Shown here: positions 1,214 through 30,102 of the stretch, piece by piece
Numbering within the stretch: the stretch's first letter is position 1
Layout: each line of letters begins with the position of its first letter
DNA from: a phage
Sequence record: PZ715804.1
Direction: 5' to 3' (one strand)
DNA: 49,773 nt
Notes under the pieces: generated by a model
What the model was told of the DNA's origin: nothing
Database searches by the model: none
The model's input: the letters and a program-made list of their open reading frames with translations, nothing else
Translations under genes and position numbers: made by a program

Positions 1214-1294
1214 TTGCATGTCCTCGTCGTTAGTGTGATTGCATTGTATGTCGCATTTACTTTTATTGCAATAGCGCAATTACAATTTTTTTTC

Positions 1295-1465
1295 GTGTAA
1301 CGGGTGTCTATTTTTGTAACTGGAGATGGTGTTACAAAATCTACCCAATCCGAACGCAGGTAGATATGATAAAAACTCTATATAATATATATAGATAGAT
1401 AATATTTAATTTTAGCTTTATATATATAATTATTGTTGTGTAACAGTTGTCTATCGTGTAACTGG
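1295..1465. repeat. two imperfect direct repeats (about 29 bp, at 1295-1323 and 1438-1465) flanking an extremely AT-rich core (1374-1436)
   Basis: GTGTAAC-nGn-TGTCTAT-n-TGTAACTGG in both units. Confidence 0.6.
1312..1339. promoter_or_regulatory. perfect 9 bp inverted repeat TTTTGTAAC-N10-GTTACAAAA (candidate operator)
   Basis: Arms at 1312-1320 and 1331-1339; related GTTACAAAA half-sites at 19918-19926 and 20168-20178. Confidence 0.45.
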
Positions 1466-1682
1466 TGATTTGATTGATTCGTCAAATTTCTATCATATAT
1501 GTTCAAAATTTAATCAATATGGATTCTACTTGTAGCTATCCCTGTATTTCTAAGAAAAAGCGGTTACAAGTATTACACAGTAGACATCACATAAAAATAG
1601 ACTTAAGCCATTGATTCCGTTAATGCTGGTTGTAACTTGAGCGATATAGACACGCTATTACACACCAATTACATGTATCCGA

Positions 1683-1710
1683 TTGACTAAACGCTGTTAA
1701 TGGCTATAAT
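1683..1710 (+). promoter_or_regulatory. near-consensus sigma70-type promoter upstream of exonuclease-erf-ssb genes
   Basis: TTGACT, 16 nt spacer, TATAAT about 30 nt before the exonuclease ATG. Confidence 0.5.
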
Positions 1711-1741
1711 GGATTCATCGTAAACGAGGGAGATAAACGCA

Positions 1742-2806
1742 ATGTTCCAGGTGTTCACATCAAGTCAGCTTTCTAATGACGAGTATCATAGCAACGAAGG
1801 TTGGGCGGCAGAGTATGTAAGCGGTTCTAGCCTTGCAGAAATTTATCAGACTTGCCCGGCTAACTGGAGATTCAAGAAGAATGAGACAACGAAGGCGCTG
1901 GAGTTTGGTACTCAGTCGCATACCAACTTTGAGAGCCGAGATCTGTTTACTGCAACGTATGCACGTTGTCCGGCTCCGTCAGAGTTCAAGGATCTGATTA
2001 CGTCACAAGCCGCACTGGCTGCAAAATTAAAATCTTTCGGCCTGAAAGGTACATCCGGTAAGCAGTACCCGGACCTCATCAAGATGATGGTTGATTGCGG
2101 TGAAGAGCTAAACGTCCAATATCTGATCGAGTTGATTGCGGAAGCAGAGGCGCGCTCTGAAGGAAAGAAATTGGTTGACGCTGACAAATACGACGCTTGC
2201 ATGAAGATGAGAGCAATCCTTGAACAAAATCCTGATCACGAAGCGTGCATCAACAGTGAAACGGCGCAGCGTGAGATTTCAATCTTCGGTGAGATATCCG
2301 GCGTCAAGGTTAAGGTTCGACTTGACCATCTGGACTACAAAGAGAATGTTCCAGGTCGTGTCCTGACTGGTTATGATGAGAATGGAGATCCGGTATTCGA
2401 AGATGTTATTTTCCCTGAAGCACTGATTATCACTGACTTCAAAACAACAATGAGCGCCAACCCGTTAGAGTTCCCGAGACTGGCATACAATCACGGGTAT
2501 TATCTGAAAATGGCCTTGCAGCATGATCTGCTACGACGCGCAATCCAGGCTGGCGCTTTTGAAGGCAACTTCCCGGAAGATATCCCGATCGTAGTTCGAT
2601 TGCTGGCTCAGGAGAAAAAAGAGCCTTACATCGCACTTGCTTACCGTATGACTATGGAGCAAATCAGGATCGGTCGTAGCCAGTATGTTAGCGTAGTCCA
2701 CACTTACAAGGCTTGCTCTGAAATGGATGTTTGGCCTGGGTACGCTGGCGACGCAAGCGAGATTGAACTTGAAACGCCATCATGGGTGCGTTACCAAAAT
2801 AAGTAA
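1742..2806 (+). CDS. PD-(D/E)XK family exonuclease (recombination exonuclease)
   Basis: 354 aa; motifs RLDHLD and IITDFKTT (D-x-K) plus YNHGYYLK; sits immediately upstream of ERF and SSB. Confidence 0.55.
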   Translation: MFQVFTSSQLSNDEYHSNEGWAAEYVSGSSLAEIYQTCPANWRFKKNETTKALEFGTQSHTNFESRDLFTATYARCPAPSEFKDLITSQAALAAKLKSFGLKGTSGKQYPDLIKMMVDCGEELNVQYLIELIAEAEARSEGKKLVDADKYDACMKMRAILEQNPDHEACINSETAQREISIFGEISGVKVKVRLDHLDYKENVPGRVLTGYDENGDPVFEDVIFPEALIITDFKTTMSANPLEFPRLAYNHGYYLKMALQHDLLRRAIQAGAFEGNFPEDIPIVVRLLAQEKKEPYIALAYRMTMEQIRIGRSQYVSVVHTYKACSEMDVWPGYAGDASEIELETPSWVRYQNK

Positions 2807-5572: not shown

Positions 5573-5593
5573 AATATAAACTCCTTAAGTAAA

Positions 5594-5611
5594 TAGCACG
5601 AATTGCTAAAC
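5594..5611. promoter_or_regulatory. motif copy (TAGCACGAATTGCTAAAC) immediately upstream, on the opposite strand, of the tail fibre RBS
   Basis: Motif lies 8-25 nt from the AAGGAG RBS of the minus-strand tail fibre gene. Confidence 0.4.
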
Positions 5612-6664: not shown

Positions 6665-6686
6665 TGTTTTAACTAAAAATGCTATT
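6665..6686 (-). promoter_or_regulatory. motif copy (minus orientation) encoding the last codons and stop of the HTH gene
   Basis: Minus-strand reading AATAGCATTTTTAGTTAAAAC; followed by terminator then primase RBS. Confidence 0.4.
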
Positions 6687-7121
6687 TGTCGTTCCAATAT
6701 CTTCCTTCTTCACGACCCGCATAAACTTCTTGTTTTTGCAGCGCTTCTCAAGGCACTTTCCGTTCCCATCAAACTTCAGATCGAATCGCAGCCATGCGGC
6801 CCGAAATCCTTTGCAACCCTGTCGGCGATAAGCACGATGCGCCGCTTCAGCGCCTTGCCAGGAAATCATATTTCGATCCTTCCAACCTTGAACCGTCTGA
6901 TTGCTAACTTTCAGAGCCTTTGCACAAGCCGCCGGACCACCATAATATTCAATAAGAGCATCCAATCGCGCTCTCAGTCCTGCGCGCGTTTCTTCTTTAT
7001 GGATATAAAATCCGCAGCGCTGGCGAGGCTTTTTATCTTTACCGCGTCGCGTTCCGTTGTTACCATTGATGTGACGTTTATCGATTTCACCAGTAGACTC
7101 TGCGATACGTTTCATATTCAT
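6669..7121 (-). CDS. putative DNA-binding protein (Cro/YdaS-like HTH)
   Basis: Start at internal Met (MNMKRIAE) with GGAGAA RBS; HTH-like AACAKALKVSNQTVQGWKDRNMIS; basic; C-terminus ...TNSIFS* is encoded by the repeated motif. Confidence 0.4.
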   Translation of the reverse strand: MNMKRIAESTGEIDKRHINGNNGTRRGKDKKPRQRCGFYIHKEETRAGLRARLDALIEYYGGPAACAKALKVSNQTVQGWKDRNMISWQGAEAAHRAYRRQGCKGFRAAWLRFDLKFDGNGKCLEKRCKNKKFMRVVKKEDIGTTNSIFS

Positions 7122-7134
7122 ATTAATTCTCCTG

Positions 7135-7177
7135 TAGCACTTTTTGCTAAAAACGTTTACTGTATGCCGTGTATTAT
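7135..7177 (+). promoter_or_regulatory. motif-spacer-(-10) cassette upstream of helicase
   Basis: TAGCACTTTTTGCTAAAAAC, 22 nt spacer, TATTAT. Confidence 0.5.
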
Positions 7178-7215
7178 ATCGTAAACGATACAACGATTCA
7201 AAGGATTAAATAGCC

Positions 7216-14141: not shown

Positions 14142-14336
14142 GTACCTTTTTACGTTAAGTAGTAACTCCCCATCCTGGTCGCAAAGATTATGCTCGCTTT
14201 CGTTACTGGCCCTCATTGAAGTGAGCAACAGACTCAACAACCCTTGCTCAAATTCTTCTTTCGTAAGCTGGAGCCTTGCGCACAATTCGACGTTCCGATC
14301 TATCAATGTTTCTACGTTCTCCAAACAAATCCTCAT
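14136..14336 (-). CDS. hypothetical small protein
   Basis: ORF track; GGAGAG RBS before ATG; overlaps 3' end of next ORF in another frame. Confidence 0.3.
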   Translation of the reverse strand: MRICLENVETLIDRNVELCARLQLTKEEFEQGLLSLLLTSMRASNESEHNLCDQDGELLLNVKRYK

Positions 14337-14655
14337 CACTCATCTCTCCAATGTGCATCATTTCCCACGTATACCGATTGTTGTAGCCATCAATACACAT
14401 CAGCTTCATCATTACCGGGCGCTTAATCTTTCCCTTGCACCAGTAAAACCCATCCCTGCAATCAAGATAACCCTCAGTTACACAGCGTGAGCAAAACTCC
14501 TTAGATAGCGCGCTTGTAAATTCACGGCGAGTCATTCCTGCGGCCTTAGCAAATCGCTCACTTTCCTTGTGGGCGTATATAAATTTCGCTATGTGCTGTC
14601 GAGTGTATTTGTCGTAACCTTCGCAGAACCTGAACAGATCTAAAAGAAGAAGCAT
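14248..14655 (-). CDS. hypothetical Cys-rich protein
   Basis: 135 aa; FCSRCVTEGYLDCRDGFYWC cluster suggests metal binding. Confidence 0.45.
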   Translation of the reverse strand: MLLLLDLFRFCEGYDKYTRQHIAKFIYAHKESERFAKAAGMTRREFTSALSKEFCSRCVTEGYLDCRDGFYWCKGKIKRPVMMKLMCIDGYNNRYTWEMMHIGEMSDEDLFGERRNIDRSERRIVRKAPAYERRI

Positions 14656-14659
14656 ATTA

Positions 14660-16228
14660 TTAACCCATCAGTCGAGGGTTGATGAAAACAATATCATCAA
14701 TCCGGCAAGTGTAGTTCATCTCTTCGAGCGTGATCAGCAGGCTGTCGATTCGCTCAGATACTTTCTGTTGACCGTTGAACGGCGTAACGTTCCGGCACTT
14801 TGCAACGATGCTATGAATAGGTGCGCGGCCTTTGTTCTTCTTCGCGATCTCAGTGATAACATCAATCAGCTTACGAGATTCAGCCTCATCACCTGCATAC
14901 CCGGCAGCGCTGGCAGATGACAGATAAGTCCTGGAAAGCTCATTAAAAATCATGATTGCTTCCTGCATTGTTTCAAGATCTATCTCACGATTGGAACGGT
15001 TCGGTGATTCACCCTCCCAATTCTTGATCGTGTGGAGAACTGAAGCAATACGCAAGGCGTGCTTATCGAACTTGCCGAGATGACCGCGTAGCATTGAGTG
15101 AGAGTATTTCCCACCTGCGGAGAAATCCGGTTCCATCGCCTGACGCGCAAGGTTTAATTCACGCATAGCATTACGACTAACAGATAGAACAACGTTTTCC
15201 TCCTTCATAATGTTGTGCACGAGTCGATAATATTTACTCACCAATCCTCGATCGACTTCCTTATACAGCGCATCACCATTTTCATCGCAAAGGATACGAG
15301 TACCTAAAAGCGGCTCCTCACGAACTAAAAGGAAGCGCTCAGACACACCGATACCTCGCTGGCCTGCGTCCATGATACCCTTGATTGTTTCATCCTGCGC
15401 AATAACGCAGATTGAACCGACCGGGCAAAGGGACAAGTTGTTATCCTGGTTGGAACGCGCGACCTCCATATGGTTTTTATCCCACGCCTTAAGGATAAGC
15501 TCGCTGTTTGATTTCTTATCTGAACCGCCATACGTAAGCCCGAGCAATGTATTGATTGCCGTTGCCTCGTCAGATATTACGGAGAAGTGACCTTGCACTG
15601 CCGCCACCTTCGCTAGACCTTCAGGTGTAGGATCTGATACCGCGAAAACAATATCAGCCATCTTCTTGATCTTTTCTTCCAGTTTTTCCTTGTCTTCGTA
15701 CAGCGCCGCCGTCGTGTTACCCTTCGGATCGTTTTTGATTTCTTTCTCGACCTGACGTAGCTGACTGGTTAAACGGATGCGTTCCTTTTTGCGCTCTTCA
15801 TTCAGTCGCTGAATCTCTGCGCGCATAGGAGTTATCGCCGCTGAGTTAATAGCGGACTTACCTGTTGATGGTGGCTGGCTGATTACCATGTAAAGCGCGG
15901 TCGGCTGTTCTTCGCCGTGATATTGCACCCAAAACTTCCCGAGCATCGCGGCTGAGATGCACCCAATGAAATGAGCGTACGCAGACGAAACCGGAAACTG
16001 TACAGACTCAGCCTTTGCCTTTGCATATTCGAATACCAGGTTATCGCCACCTAACGAAATCAGCGGGAACTTATCGTTTCCACTGTTGATATCGATCGGA
16101 TCTTGCCAAAACGAAACTGAATCCCCATAGCTGTTTTCACGAATTGCGATCGCCACCGGATTAACTCCAGTGCTATTTGCGATCTCAATAATCTGTTGGT
16201 AATTCAATTTTGGCTTAATATTAAACAT
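14660..16228 (-). CDS. P-loop NTPase, DUF3987-like (primase/helicase-associated)
   Basis: About 522 aa from ATG (or GTG 16231) behind AAGGAG RBS; Walker A-like PPSTGKS; driven by minus-strand cassette 16258-16302. Confidence 0.45.
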   Translation of the reverse strand: MFNIKPKLNYQQIIEIANSTGVNPVAIAIRENSYGDSVSFWQDPIDINSGNDKFPLISLGGDNLVFEYAKAKAESVQFPVSSAYAHFIGCISAAMLGKFWVQYHGEEQPTALYMVISQPPSTGKSAINSAAITPMRAEIQRLNEERKKERIRLTSQLRQVEKEIKNDPKGNTTAALYEDKEKLEEKIKKMADIVFAVSDPTPEGLAKVAAVQGHFSVISDEATAINTLLGLTYGGSDKKSNSELILKAWDKNHMEVARSNQDNNLSLCPVGSICVIAQDETIKGIMDAGQRGIGVSERFLLVREEPLLGTRILCDENGDALYKEVDRGLVSKYYRLVHNIMKEENVVLSVSRNAMRELNLARQAMEPDFSAGGKYSHSMLRGHLGKFDKHALRIASVLHTIKNWEGESPNRSNREIDLETMQEAIMIFNELSRTYLSSASAAGYAGDEAESRKLIDVITEIAKKNKGRAPIHSIVAKCRNVTPFNGQQKVSERIDSLLITLEEMNYTCRIDDIVFINPRLMG

Positions 16229-16304: not shown

Positions 16305-16721
16305 TTATAAGTATTTGGCCTCAAAGGTTGTGCCGTCTGCGATACTAAAACCCACCTCTTCGCGGAATAAGGTCCAGCGGCAACCGTCCTCATCAAAGAT
16401 GTAACCAGCTACGCCACCGAGAGCGCGACCGCTTTCAACCTGGTAACGCTTTCCAACCTTGAATGATTTTTTCATCGTGTTGCGATGGTCAAGCCCGGTG
16501 CATTTAAGCGTTTTTGTTTTTAACTCGGTGAACTTCGCGAAGAAGATTTCATCAGATCCGTGAATCTGTAATTCATCATGCTCTTCAAGTTTTAAATACT
16601 TCCCGCATTTTAACTTTACTTCGCGAGTGCCATCATAGCGCTCACGACCTTTATACAGATTGTTTACTTCGAATCCTGTGATTTTGTCTGCTGAAGTGCA
16701 TTTAAGTTTAATGGTTTTCAT
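16305..16721 (-). CDS. hypothetical protein with internal repeats of the MKxxKC small-domain type
   Basis: 138 aa; AGGAG RBS within CCAATCAGGAG context; repeats IKLKCTSADKITGFEVNNLYKG and LKCTGLDHR...VGKRYQV. Confidence 0.5.
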   Translation of the reverse strand: MKTIKLKCTSADKITGFEVNNLYKGRERYDGTREVKLKCGKYLKLEEHDELQIHGSDEIFFAKFTELKTKTLKCTGLDHRNTMKKSFKVGKRYQVESGRALGGVAGYIFDEDGCRWTLFREEVGFSIADGTTFEAKYL

Positions 16722-18852: not shown

Positions 18853-18898
18853 ATTATGCCAAATCACACCGATCGAGTTTTAACAAAAAGTGCTATTT
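18853..18898 (-). promoter_or_regulatory. motif-spacer-(-10) cassette (minus strand)
   Basis: Minus-strand reading TAGCACTTTTTGTTAAAAC, 22 nt spacer, CATAAT; motif also encodes the Dcm-like C-terminus. Confidence 0.5.
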
Positions 18899-19584
18899 GC
18901 GATTGCTTTAAAAAATCCCCTGGGCGACAGGGATCGTATCAGCTTAGTTTTGGCAGACTTGCCGCCTAGCTTACTGTGCTGTGCAGAGTACCCGTCAGGT
19001 AGGCTTACAGGTTTTCTCTCGGGCATGACAAAATCGTCAGAGGTCCAAAGGCAAGTTTTCTTCGGGTAAGCATCGCGCGGCGCAATATACATCGGGAACC
19101 AGGGGTGTGAGTCATTCTCAGGAAGATAGCCGCCATACTCCCAGGGATTGAAGGAGTGATTTGGTTTTCTCCAGGCAGATGACAGGACGCTAACCGGATT
19201 CTCAATGATGTAAGTCACGCCCAGGGCGTCGCCAATATTTGCAGCAATCCGGGCGGTGGCAACAGCCTTCTCCTGGAATAACGGATCGCGTTCACGCTTT
19301 CTTGCGAAGTGAGCGGCACCACTAACAGCCAGGTCAGTGCACGGAGGGAAAGCCATAATGAAATCCGGCTTGCCATACACGCCAGCGATAGCATCACGCT
19401 CAAACGCTGCGTCAATGAACACGTTCACATACTCAATGTTCTGATGCTCCACTCTGGCATTGCACTTTGCATAATCCCCGTGATCGGCTCCGTCAAAGTT
19501 GAAGCACATCACCTTGTGACCTTGCTTAGCCAGTTCATGACCTGCAAGGCCGGAACCGTCGAATAGCGACCAGATTAATTTCAT
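18880..19584 (-). CDS. dcm: DNA cytosine-5 methyltransferase-like protein (short, Dcm-like)
   Basis: 234 aa; motif I LFDGSGLAG, motif IV FPPCTDLAVSG, ENV-like IIENPV; C-terminus ...ANSTFC* is encoded by the repeated motif. Confidence 0.6.
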   Translation of the reverse strand: MKLIWSLFDGSGLAGHELAKQGHKVMCFNFDGADHGDYAKCNARVEHQNIEYVNVFIDAAFERDAIAGVYGKPDFIMAFPPCTDLAVSGAAHFARKRERDPLFQEKAVATARIAANIGDALGVTYIIENPVSVLSSAWRKPNHSFNPWEYGGYLPENDSHPWFPMYIAPRDAYPKKTCLWTSDDFVMPERKPVSLPDGYSAQHSKLGGKSAKTKLIRSLSPRGFFKAIANSTFC

Positions 19585-19616: not shown

Positions 19617-19662
19617 ATCATACCCTGCCAGCCTGACCAAATCGTTAGCAAAAAATGCTATT
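19617..19662 (-). promoter_or_regulatory. motif-spacer-(-10) cassette (minus strand) upstream of the Dcm-like gene
   Basis: Minus-strand reading TAGCATTTTTTGCTAAC, 22-23 nt spacer, TATGAT; then CCAATCAGAGGA RBS. Confidence 0.45.
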
Positions 19663-20276
19663 CCAATAGTTGCTCATTATTCCATCATCAATGGAATATC
19701 TGGAATAATTACGATCCCGATTGATCTCGAATGATGAAATGTGATTGTTGCATGGCGTGCAACTGTTGATGTGATTATTGCTTAGAATGCAATGATTGTG
19801 AGAGGGAGAATTTAGTGTTACCCGGTTCGCCTGGTGGTCATCTCCATTTTTAGCAAAACGTGCTATTCGTCTATGCGGTAGTTGTAATTGTCGTAATAGT
19901 TGTATACCATCAGGGGTGTTACAAAATGGCCCGAGAATCGATAGGCCTATAGATAATAAAATATCTATATATAATAATAAGATAGATAATATATATTTAT
20001 TTATTTATTATATTATATATTGGTATGTAATCGGCGTAATAGGTGCAACCGCATTTTTTGAGGGTGGCATATATTTCGTGATGCATAGTATAAAAAACAT
20101 ACTATTCCGCGCGCATAAATAGATGTGCTTGCTTTTATAGAAAAAGTCGGTTGCATCGGTTGCACTGGTTACAAAAATAAAAAATGCAGCTATAGACATT
20201 GACGCGCCTGACGTTGTAGCTGTAACATGTTTTTCGAAGTTGAAAGTTACACCCATAGACAACGAGGTATAGACAA
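19663..20276. promoter_or_regulatory. repeat-rich intergenic control region between divergent early blocks, with AT-rich core (about 19938-20018) and three ATAGACA words (20192, 20255, 20269)
   Basis: No convincing ORF; short palindromes (TTCCAT-N5-ATGGAA, GTTGCATGGCGTGCAAC), repeated TGATGTGATT words, about 80 bp of almost pure A/T. Confidence 0.5.
19847..19869 (-). promoter_or_regulatory. motif copy (minus orientation) with no downstream gene, at the edge of the AT-rich control region
   Basis: Plus-strand TTTTTAGCAAAACGTGCTATTCG. Confidence 0.35.
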
Positions 20277-20852
20277 GTGAAAACTCAGCTTAAAGAAGTG
20301 ACAGGATTTGAACTCAACCTGCCGGACTATATTCGAAAGGCGATTGAAATCCACCAATCAGGGAATGAGTTCTCAATCACTGGAAAGCAAATGGTTGAAG
20401 TGTACGTCAATGAGCAGGCCGAGATTGTAAAGGCTACTCAGGGCGTGGAGCTTAACGATGACCAGATCGATGAGGCTGTCGTTAACGAGTACACATCTCG
20501 ATCAGCCTGGTTGATCGAACGACTCACCGCGTCGTATGTGTCCAATATCATCAAGCGCCATATGCTCAAGGTTCACAGTAAGGCCGTATCCGTGCGAATC
20601 AATCGCGATCAGGTGGATGGCGTTACGATATTCATCGCCAAACTCGAAGGCGAGGAGGCAGAGAAGGCCATAGGCGAAGCGAAGCAGGGTAAGAGAGGCC
20701 GGAAGCGAAAGAGCATATCCGACGTGTTCAATGCGAAGGTTGAAGCGTTCAGGATCGACCTGAGAGATTTTGAAGGTAGCAATATCTCAGTGTCGGATCT
20801 CAATAAGCTGGTTGAGCAGCTCCGATCACATTTACTTGATGAGGAGAAGTAA
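20277..20852 (+). CDS. hypothetical protein (191 aa), first gene of rightward early block
   Basis: ORF track; GTG start after GAGG; basic stretch KQGKRGRKRK. Confidence 0.5.
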   Translation: MKTQLKEVTGFELNLPDYIRKAIEIHQSGNEFSITGKQMVEVYVNEQAEIVKATQGVELNDDQIDEAVVNEYTSRSAWLIERLTASYVSNIIKRHMLKVHSKAVSVRINRDQVDGVTIFIAKLEGEEAEKAIGEAKQGKRGRKRKSISDVFNAKVEAFRIDLRDFEGSNISVSDLNKLVEQLRSHLLDEEK

Positions 20853-27143: not shown

Positions 27144-27716
27144 ATGAAAACAGCTATCATTTTAAACGGTGCGCCTGGCGCGGGAAAAGACACTATAGGG
27201 TGCATCCTGGCTGACACTTACGATCATGTAGCGCTACGCAGCTTTAAAGCTCCAATGTTTGAGATTGCCCGAGCAATCCTGGGTGAGACTAATTTTGAGT
27301 ATTTCATGTTCTTGTATGAGGACCGTCGCTATAAAGAAGAGCCAGCATCAATCCTGAACGGTAAAAGCCCGCGCCAGTTTATGATCTGGATTAGCGAGGA
27401 GGTTATCAAGCCGCAGTTCGGAAATCGCTTCTTCGGTATGCGAGCGGAAAGCAAGGTGAAAGAGTCTCACTCCCTTTCGGTATTTACTGACGGTGGATTC
27501 AAAGACGAAATCTTGCAGATGATTGAAGGTGAAATCCAGGTCAAGCTATGTCGAATCCATCGCAACGGTTGCAACTTTGACAACGACAGTCGCGACTACA
27601 TCTATCTTGACGATATGATCGGGGTCAACGGTTATCAGGAATGTGACTTCTTCTCTGTCGAAGGTCATCCAGAAATTACCGCTCAGCACATAGCCGCCAC
27701 GTTCATCAACAAATAG
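27144..27716 (+). CDS. P-loop kinase (nucleotide or polynucleotide kinase-like)
   Basis: 190 aa; Walker A GAPGAGKDT at N-terminus; stop TAG begins a motif copy. Confidence 0.6.
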   Translation: MKTAIILNGAPGAGKDTIGCILADTYDHVALRSFKAPMFEIARAILGETNFEYFMFLYEDRRYKEEPASILNGKSPRQFMIWISEEVIKPQFGNRFFGMRAESKVKESHSLSVFTDGGFKDEILQMIEGEIQVKLCRIHRNGCNFDNDSRDYIYLDDMIGVNGYQECDFFSVEGHPEITAQHIAATFINK

Positions 27717-27762
27717 CACGAATTGCTAAAACGTCGGTGGGGTGACTTGATATAGTTACCTC
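27714..27762 (+). promoter_or_regulatory. motif-spacer-(-10)-hairpin cassette
   Basis: TAGCACGAATTGCTAAAAC, 22 nt spacer, TATAGT in imperfect hairpin. Confidence 0.55.
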
Positions 27763-29577: not shown

Positions 29578-30102
29578 ATGAGTGAACCTAAGAACGCCCC
29601 CGTAGTCCAGGGAGGTAATTTCAAAGAGCTATACAAGAAAAAGTTCGGCACTGTTCTTGCTAAAAACCGGGCAATGACGCCTGAGCAACTATTCGATCTG
29701 TCAGTTAAGTATTTCGAATGGGCTGAGGACAACGCAATCAAGGCGTCAGAATCAGCCAGCTTTCAGGGTGGCGTTTATGAATCGCTAGTTCATAAGCCGC
29801 GAGTCTTCACCTGGACCGGATACCGACTATTCATCGGTGCAAGCGAGGCAGCAATCATTAAGTGGAAGCGAGAGGAAGAATACAGTGAGGTTATGGAGTT
29901 TGTGGAATCGGTAATCAACGAGCAAAAATTCCAGCTTGCCGCCAACGGTGTTATTAATGCCTCCTTTATCGGTAAGGATCTCGGAATCGATAAGCCAGCC
30001 TCAATCAATATCGAAAACTCGTCAGCTTCCGCATCGACAGTAGTCGCCACCACTGAGGATGCAATGAAAGAGGCAGTAAATAGCATTCTTGACATGCTTT
30101 AA
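29578..30102 (+). CDS. terminase small subunit (putative)
   Basis: Start at internal Met (MSEPKN) behind AAAGAGGA RBS; position immediately upstream of large terminase. Confidence 0.6.
   Translation: MSEPKNAPVVQGGNFKELYKKKFGTVLAKNRAMTPEQLFDLSVKYFEWAEDNAIKASESASFQGGVYESLVHKPRVFTWTGYRLFIGASEAAIIKWKREEEYSEVMEFVESVINEQKFQLAANGVINASFIGKDLGIDKPASINIENSSASASTVVATTEDAMKEAVNSILDML

Follow-up and report, generated by a model that had tools for sequence, protein, structure and literature searches.

Paralogous AT-rich modules with flanking words as candidate replication origins in a T1-like coliphage genome

In the Bacillus phage SPP1 (oriL and oriR) and the satellite phage P4 (ori and crr), two distant loci carry the same repeats beside an AT-rich tract and are served by one phage initiator. 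This initiator is the alpha primase-helicase in P4 and G38P in SPP1, whose oriL lies within the initiator gene; SPP1 also packages its DNA by a pac-type headful mechanism and has an exonuclease/annealase/SSB module. The T4 oriF and oriG and the T7 primary origin consist of a promoter and a downstream unwinding element, and in iteron plasmids the autoregulation of Rep uses the inverted form of the same word over a promoter. The origins of staphylococcal pathogenicity islands (SaPIs) have a central AT-rich region surrounded by 6–12 iterons of five or six nucleotides, of which two or more lie on each side in opposite directions, and the self-loading helicases of SaPIs and SCCmec elements read these 5–6-nt iterons with a C-terminal winged helix (PMC9371898). 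According to genome papers, no origin has been found in T1-like phages (PMC11447400, PMC7718038); the authors of the TLS paper sought lambda-type repeats and reported none (PMC11447400), and the literature that we searched yielded neither a mapped T1 origin nor transcript maps for Drexlerviridae. Here we analyze sequence record PZ715804.1, a stretch of 49,773 nucleotides (the window) that is the complete genome of a T1-like coliphage of the genus Tunavirus, family Drexlerviridae, and in particular the 528-bp gap between cor (ATG at 1213, minus strand) and the exonuclease VIII gene recE (1742–2806, plus strand), downstream of which lie erf and then ssb. The gap is best read as a composite cis-acting region of two outer promoters and a central origin-like module, which has a paralogue elsewhere in the genome, and we give a probability of about 0.5 to the reading that both modules are replication origins of the SaPI type, in which iterons would accompany an unwinding element.

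Bases 1000–1800 are 99.9% identical to JMPW2, SH2, and other phages and 91.8% identical to T1, and the whole cor–recE intergenic region is 92.4% identical to T1. The outward-facing promoters of cor (Pcor) and recE (PrecE) occupy the edges of the gap, and the AT-rich module with its flanking short words occupies the center. An earlier note on this DNA, made from the letters alone, had listed direct repeats, an AT tract, an inverted repeat, recurring words, and a promoter in this gap, and all of these were found where it had placed them. The features of the gap, hereafter region A, are as follows.

1243–1271, minus strand: Pcor, a sigma-70-type promoter TTGCAA-17-TACAAT that faces cor, with 9/12 consensus positions in the promoter scan; activity predicted.
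1295–1327, plus strand: word cluster 1 (direct repeat copy R1), GTGTAAC-GGG-TGTCTAT-TTT-TGTAAC-TGGAGAT, with words invariant or nearly so in 12 genomes.
1312–1320/1331–1339, no strand: perfect 9-bp inverted repeat, TTTTGTAAC-N10-GTTACAAAA; the GTTACA of the right arm is the left bracket of the core.
1328–1443, plus strand: module A, made up of GGTGTTACAAAAT, ~20 variable bp, the AT-rich core, and then TATTGTTGTGTAA; paralogue at 19915–20030.
1362–1437, no strand: AT-rich core of ~75 bp, candidate DNA unwinding element; 4/76 columns variable in 12 genomes.
1438–1469, plus strand: word cluster 2 (direct repeat copy R2), GTGTAAC-AGT-TGTCTAT-CG-TGTAAC-TGGTGAT.
1466–1517, no strand: near-invariant block with an imperfect palindrome, ATTGATT...AATCAAT.
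1563–1586, minus strand: word cluster 3, in inverted orientation, TGTCTAC-TG-TGTAAT-ACT-TGTAAC, partly conserved.
1631–1663, no strand: word cluster 4, TGTAAC...ATAGACAC-GCTA-TTACAC, 20–52 bp upstream of the −35 hexamer of PrecE.
1683–1710, plus strand: PrecE, a near-consensus sigma-70 promoter TTGACT-16-TATAAT, with 11/12 consensus positions in the promoter scan.

The tract of ~60 bp described in the earlier note as nearly pure A/T and lying between the direct repeats is indeed 90% AT (1372–1431) and ranks second among all 60-bp windows of the 49.8-kb genome. Only modules A and B (the latter at 19915–20030) reach 85% A+T in any 60-bp window, and among 80-bp duplexes the same two are the least stable, at −76.8 kcal/mol for A and −71.3 kcal/mol for B, followed by −88.6 kcal/mol for the third lowest; the genome mean is −109.4 kcal/mol with a standard deviation of 6.0, which places A and B 5–6 standard deviations from the mean. 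We scored conservation as variable columns in an alignment of the gap from 12 Tunavirus genomes. A block of ~155 bp (1362–1517) is almost invariant, and its constraint exceeds that of the flanking genes: the density of variable sites is 0.05 in the AT core (1362–1437), 0.14 in word cluster 2, and 0.115 in the block 1466–1517, compared with 0.27 in the cor and 0.23 in the recE coding sequence. The density is 0.145 in the Pcor block (1214–1275) and 0.174 in 1627–1712, which comprises cluster 4 and PrecE, and it rises to 0.71 in 1341–1361, 0.43 in 1518–1545, and 0.53 in 1580–1626, three blocks that on this alignment evolve almost freely.

The two direct repeats share the consensus GTGTAAC-N3-TGTCTAT-N2/3-TGTAACTGG.GAT at 1295–1327 and 1438–1469, with an identity of 80% between 1287–1311 and 1430–1454 and of 92% between 1315–1327 and 1457–1469. 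Their best 25-nt direct match (20/25) is equalled in just 0.5% of dinucleotide shuffles, so that the repeats are beyond chance. The words begin at 1295/1305/1315 and at 1438/1448/1457, a phasing of 9–10 bp, or approximately one helical turn. TGTAAC/GTTACA occurs seven times in the gap, and 11 of its 30 copies in the genome fall within the two loci, which make up 1.7% of the genome (p~1e-12). Loci A and B also contain six of the seven genome copies of TGTCTAT/ATAGACA (p~1e-10), and five of the 17 copies of GTGTAA/TTACAC lie in the gap; the TAGACA and TTACAC words that had been noticed earlier are thus present, and the distribution of the short words is far from random. Around the core at 1362–1437, TGTAAC stands three times on the left (+,+,−) and four times on the right (+,+,−,+), and the core is bracketed by GTTACA at 1331 and TGTAAC at 1439, inverted to each other; the same GTTACA...TGTAAC bracket is found in the Rogunavirus phage AHS24 and in region B, the locus of module B. 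The inverted repeat is perfect, as described before, and its arms are invariant in the 12 related genomes while its spacer varies at 7/10 positions, but its length lies within chance, and a claim of significance by length alone was rejected, since 9% of shuffles hold a perfect repeat of at least 9 bp. As a single-strand hairpin it would reach a modest −5.8 kcal/mol (z −3.4).

Positions 1328–1443 align with 19915–20030 in the same orientation (local alignment, score 79). The two modules have in common GGTGTTACAAAAT, followed by ~20 variable bases, a core with TAGATA / AGATAGATAATAT / TTTAT, and TATTG.T.TGTAA. Module B is situated in the second large divergent gap of this genome, an early junction between a methyltransferase gene (18880–19584, minus strand) and an open reading frame (ORF) at 20277–20852 (plus strand), and its main features are the following.

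19915–20030, plus strand: module B; at 95% AT it has the highest A+T content in the genome, and its duplex is the least stable.
20160–20276, no strand: region B word cluster, with ATAGACA three times and TGTAAC-N22-GTTACA across −10/+1 of the rightward promoter.
20199–20228, rightward: region B rightward promoter, TTGACG-18-TAACAT.

In region B of four genomes, the core is invariant, and the stretch directly after GTTACAAAAT is variable. The TGTAAC-N22-GTTACA pair keeps its arms while its spacer varies (phage phiL; four-genome comparison), and one ATAGACA adjoins the −35 hexamer of the rightward promoter, with two more copies in the leader. T1 (L014) was compared at 29940–30090 with positions 1295–1460 of the window; there, GCGTATAT/TGTATAT replaces TGTCTAT in clusters 1 and 2, and in region B of T1, TGTATA, with 7 copies, abounds in place of TGTCTAT. 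Judged from these alignments, the word swap in T1 looks coordinated between both loci of one genome.

DNA similarity to the gap ends at the genus border, with the exception of the PrecE promoter: both Pcor and PrecE are conserved in the genus, and PrecE as far as Sertoctavirus and Warwickvirus. The layout, however, extends beyond this border; recE itself was found in ~1,260 phage genomes. A non-coding tract of ~500 bp precedes recE in Sertoctavirus (SRT8), Warwickvirus (PeterMerian, mar001J1), Hanrivervirus (G29-2), LF82-12, and Webervirus (Alina, K64PH164C4); the tract is 745 bp in the Braunvirinae phage SU57, and Rogunavirus (AHS24) has an AT island upstream of the recE operon. Every tract contains a core of 82–90% A+T that begins ~145–175 nt in. 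In seven genomes of five genera, no other spot is as AT-rich as regions A and B; this covers all the complete genomes that we examined (the window phage, T1, SRT8, PeterMerian, K64PH164C4, and AHS24) together with partial loci of other phages. The paralogy of A and B also exists in Webervirus, Warwickvirus, and Rogunavirus, with a near-identical stretch of ~85 bp between the two cores in Webervirus. The words flanking the core differ between genera: TGTAAC/TGTCTAT in T1-like phages, GTAATC/TGTAAT (8 copies) in SRT8, GTAAGAT (11 copies) in Webervirus, the T1-type word GTAAC in Rogunavirus and SU57, and GATAACA/GAACAAG-type words in weaker, less clear arrays in Warwickvirus and Hanrivervirus. 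Within each genome, however, one vocabulary serves both loci. Differences in the words between phages of one host speak for a reader encoded by the phage and against a factor of the host. In Webervirus, the genes run on one strand in the order regulator-primase-[A]-recE-erf-ssb, and no divergent promoter pair exists at A; module A is therefore not a mere by-product of divergent promoters and is kept beside replication genes.

A candidate for the reader is encoded by the phage.

14660–16228, minus strand: DUF3987 protein of 522 residues, a predicted MCM-like AAA+ helicase with a C-terminal winged helix at residues ~445–522; DNA helicase in PHROGs.

The structure of this protein was predicted from 32 homologues with a predicted local distance difference test score (pLDDT) of 88 and a predicted template modelling score of 0.86, and the predicted structure is related to SCCmec Cch; the T1 record annotates it as a 'putative ATPase'. 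The phage also encodes a zinc-ribbon primase and an SF2 helicase. On the strength of the model, the DUF3987 helicase is a candidate initiator acting in trans and the best candidate for binding the words. The ORF at 16305–16721 (minus strand) beside the helicase gene was considered as an origin binder and set aside; its model is all-beta (pLDDT 90) with no significant match in the PDB, and its T1 orthologue is annotated as a RipR-like helix-turn-helix protein. Sequence searches with this ORF and that at 14248–14655 against the PDB, Pfam, and NCBIfam found nothing, and a proteome comparison with SRT8, in which a diverged DNA-binding protein matching the change from TGTAAC to TGTAAT was looked for, brought out no protein that stood out.

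From the anatomy, conservation, paralogy, and layout described above, we infer word binding, core melting, and a replication start at the modules. A phage protein, with the winged helix of DUF3987 as the best candidate and another early protein as the alternative, would bind the words on both sides of the core, and negative supercoiling from the two divergent promoters would ease the opening of the core. The helicase would then load, the phage zinc-ribbon primase would prime, and host polymerase III would extend. A fuller version of this proposal holds that T1-like phages have two paralogous origins fired by an MCM-like self-loading helicase that reads the words through its winged helix, and that the words double as operators and so couple early transcription to firing; this version is tentative, and we consider it clearly less probable than the origin reading itself.

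Compared with the SaPI and SCCmec systems, region A has a similar arrangement, with a 75-bp core that has seven TGTAAC, as well as TGTCTAT and GTGTAA, to its left and right and at least two repeats per side in opposite directions, and the phage likewise encodes an MCM-like AAA+ helicase with a predicted C-terminal winged helix and, nearby, a separate primase. There are also significant differences. The SaPI origin lies directly downstream of rep, whereas modules A and B lie away from the helicase gene; each genome has two modules, with two or three word types instead of one iteron; no sequence similarity exists, and the binding of the words by the T1 helicase is putative. In the case of SPP1 and P4, the likeness consists in two distant loci with repeats near an AT tract, but their initiators are unrelated to the T1-like helicase. 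Short repeats beside an AT-rich unwinding tract are shared with lambda-type and iteron-plasmid origins, and the TGTAAC...GTTACA pair over the region B promoter resembles Rep autoregulation in iteron plasmids; in contrast to these systems, there are no 18–22-bp tandem iterons, and no O- or Rep-type initiator was recognised. Like T4 and T7, this is a lytic T-phage with an AT-rich unwinding tract near promoters, where transcription could help opening or priming; unlike in T4 and T7, the strong promoters point away from the core, and just a weak promoter-like TAGACA-16-AATTAT reads leftwards into it. A DnaA-dependent origin of the oriC type was rejected, because no DnaA boxes (with up to one mismatch), GATC (2.5 expected), or 13-mers occur in 1214–1741. 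Region A contains no CRP or Fis sites, and its one match to the IHF core falls within a variable stretch. Satellites or plasmids that borrow the module were sought among 5,426 genomes of E. coli and 72,556 plasmid sequences, and no similar DNA was found. The origin reading offered in the earlier note is strengthened by the invariant core, the paralogue, the family-wide layout, and the MCM-like helicase, while the features of the oriC type are missing and an origin function would follow from the layout by analogy.

The right-hand part of the gap has a documented function in transcription. Laganenka et al. (2019) fused T1 promoter fragments to gfp, and the T1 PrecE fragment was active and was repressed by Pir (Orf23) and by cAMP-CRP in a cell-free system (PMC6737242); this part of the gap is thus a regulated promoter. 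The primers of the PrecE reporter (PMC6737242) map to ~1541–1757 of the window (217 bp), which includes clusters 3 and 4, the promoter, and the leader. That work therefore concerns the same locus but only its right-hand 217 bp, and the AT core, clusters 1 and 2, and the inverted repeat lie outside the construct. The TTGACT-N16-TATAAT promoter that had been predicted at 1683–1710 is present, with an active orthologue in T1 (PMC6737242). The earlier suggestion of divergent promoters under tight operator control is supported for the outward promoters and for the regulation of PrecE; the 9-bp inverted repeat proposed as the operator falls outside the reporter fragment. The regulator and a better candidate site are the following.

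6669–7121, minus strand: Pir (T1 Orf23 orthologue), a Cro/C2-like helix-turn-helix regulator upstream of the primase; Pfam P22_Cro (weak), phrog_2856.
1717–1727, plus strand: ATCGTAAACGA in the recE 5' leader, candidate Pir operator; the same 11-mer stands in the −35/−10 spacer of the pir promoter (Ppir), 7178–7188.

Pir is 95% identical to the T1 protein. Two of the four copies of CGTAAACG in the T1 genome lie in the PrecE leader and in the Ppir spacer (30355, 36490), that is, at two Pir-repressed promoters, and CGTAAACG is found at 1719 in the window phage. The CGTAAACG in the recE leader is probably the Pir operator, and by its distribution it is a better candidate than the 9-bp inverted repeat. 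As a reader of TGTAAC, Pir was rejected for want of support: the Ppir spacer has TTGTAAC in T1 and TTGTATC in the window phage, and other genera lack their own words in Ppir, so that Pir is not obviously the reader of these genus-specific words.

Several observations weigh against an origin function and in part favor another explanation, namely, that regions A and B are purely transcriptional hubs, in which the words would be operator or enhancer sites for one or more phage regulators of an early-to-middle switch at two divergent early promoter regions, and the AT core would be architectural (bent DNA, or a platform for nucleoid proteins or of the UP type). Clusters 3 and 4 lie within the PrecE fragment that Pir and cAMP-CRP repress (PMC6737242), as the primer mapping indicates, so that transcription factors could bind at least a part of the words. 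An operator-typical geometry is seen in region B, where words overlap the −35, the −10/+1, and the leader of the rightward promoter: ATAGACA at the −35, the TGTAAC...GTTACA pair astride −10/+1 with kept arms and a variable spacer, and two ATAGACA in the leader. Both modules head transcription units, and the polarity of the core is fixed relative to the downstream operon at both loci and in Webervirus, which suggests a link to transcription; the invariance of the core sequence, as far as the alignment tells, is also greater than an unwinding element needs. The ATAGACAC-N3-TTAC word resembles the promoter-associated repeat of the family, ATAGCAC-N3-TTG, although the ATAGACAC-N3/4-TTAC words merely resemble it, and the 21-nt intergenic repeat of the T1 family, aaATAGCACnnnTTGnTAAAA, has no match with up to three mismatches in 1214–1741. 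Moreover, module A lies 13 kb and module B ~3.6 kb from the helicase gene, neither of them adjacent to it; no clear co-variation between the sequence of the winged helix and the type of word emerged from 32 sequences; and T1 may start replication by recombination too, given recE, erf, and terminal redundancy. The operator-like words, the over-constrained polar core, the distant helicase gene, and the missing winged-helix co-variation are the reasons why we hold the origin figure at ~0.5. Other observations speak against a transcriptional hub. The distance of the core from the rightward promoters is 170–240 bp, and that from Pcor ~95 bp, which is too great for an UP element; PrecE is kept alone across genera while the 400 bp upstream change their words; the genus-specific words are absent from Ppir in other genera, where Pir autoregulates without them; and Webervirus has no divergent promoter pair at A. 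A family-wide non-coding tract of 500 bp in a dense genome and the two deepest stability minima also go beyond the requirements of known phage promoter switches. We regard a purely transcriptional role as the main rival, less likely than an origin function. Iteron-binding initiators often also act as promoter repressors, and the two readings are for this reason not exclusive.

Two other explanations are, in our view, very unlikely. The AT islands could be pac-like entry sites of the terminase, or entry points of RecE/Erf for concatemers; the literature places pac in the untranslated region of region B (PMC7718038). The T1 record and several others are opened at region B, and module A is directly upstream of the recombination operon. 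However, classical T1 work indicates one pac site and one packaging series, whereas two series would be expected from two equivalent sites separated by 18 kb; no part of the module resembles the P22-type pac motif used for the TLS pac, and an array of TATTCC/GGAATA in region B that is conserved across genera is the better pac candidate. The region could instead encode a product, either a small RNA from a promoter inside or beside the AT core or a protein of 46 residues.

1474–1614, plus strand: ORF of 46 codons with a TTG start, CPTT1_049 in the T1 record; probably not a gene.

This ORF is annotated in the T1 record and is open and of equal length in 12/12 genomes, the TAGACA-16-AATTAT site reads leftwards into the core, and a conserved hairpin with a T-run follows the region B core at 20111–20128. 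We rejected the ORF as a gene, because its variable sites fall by codon position as 10/19/12 in the 12 genomes, with no coding pattern, and because of its TTG start; it also shows many radical replacements. The AT core, the most conserved part, lies outside the ORF, other genera have no equivalent ORF, region A contains no terminator, and Rfam covariance models found no match in positions 900–1900 at E≤1.

The PrecE promoter and its regulation were known (PMC6737242), as were iterons around an unwinding tract as a type of element; of the invariant core, the A/B paralogy, the family-wide layout with its genus-varying words, and the MCM-like nature of DUF3987, no description was found in the searchable literature. 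Judged by its sequence features, the module is the best candidate yet for the T1 replication origin. T1 belongs to the seven classical T phages, and the question of its origin may now be narrowed to two modules of ~115 bp with defined words and a candidate protein. If the origin reading is true, it would provide a replication model for the family, account for the 500-bp non-coding tract that precedes recE in hundreds of phages of Escherichia, Shigella, and Klebsiella with actual or potential use in therapy, and supply origin parts for the engineering of T1-like phages. If the MCM-like helicase indeed reads the words, an initiator-helicase logic of the archaeal/eukaryotic style, hitherto documented in staphylococcal islands, would be central to a classical T-phage. 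Should the origin reading be refuted, the family would still have its main early control regions in these modules.

Further features were observed around module B. The stretch between its core and the rightward promoter (20030–20135) is almost invariant in four genomes and holds a perfect 7-bp stem, ATAGTAT/ATACTAT, as well as the terminator-like hairpin with a T-run at 20111–20128; it may encode a short RNA that starts in the AT core of B. To the left of module B, at 19659–19708, there is an array of TATTCC..TATTCC..GGAATA..GGAATA, which recurs left of module B in SRT8 and in Webervirus K64PH164C4 and, unlike the other words, is the same across genera; a conserved protein, perhaps pac/terminase, may act at this array. 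Within the genus, the sequence to the right of module B is mosaic, and the first gene there (20277–20852, plus strand) encodes a basic KQGKRGRKRK patch and has no tblastn match in T1 or SRT8.

The T1-family repeat ATAGCACnnnTTGnTAAAA has 27 matches (with up to three mismatches) genome-wide, mostly intergenic, for example, at 5593–5611(+), 7134–7152(+), 18896–18878(−), 19866–19848(−), and 27713–27731(+). Most of them point to the downstream gene and are followed ~19–22 nt later by a −10-like box (TATAAT/TATAGT). This arrangement suggests a class of promoters specific to the phage, with the repeat in place of the −35 element. Their function is listed as an open question in the TLS paper (PMC11447400), and among promoters of this type, dam and hol are activated by Pir, but a third, orf65, is not (PMC6737242). 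Finally, a GC-rich hairpin with a T-run lies at 963–980 between the convergent ORF 275–964 and cor, and the T1 record gives it as a rho-independent terminator.

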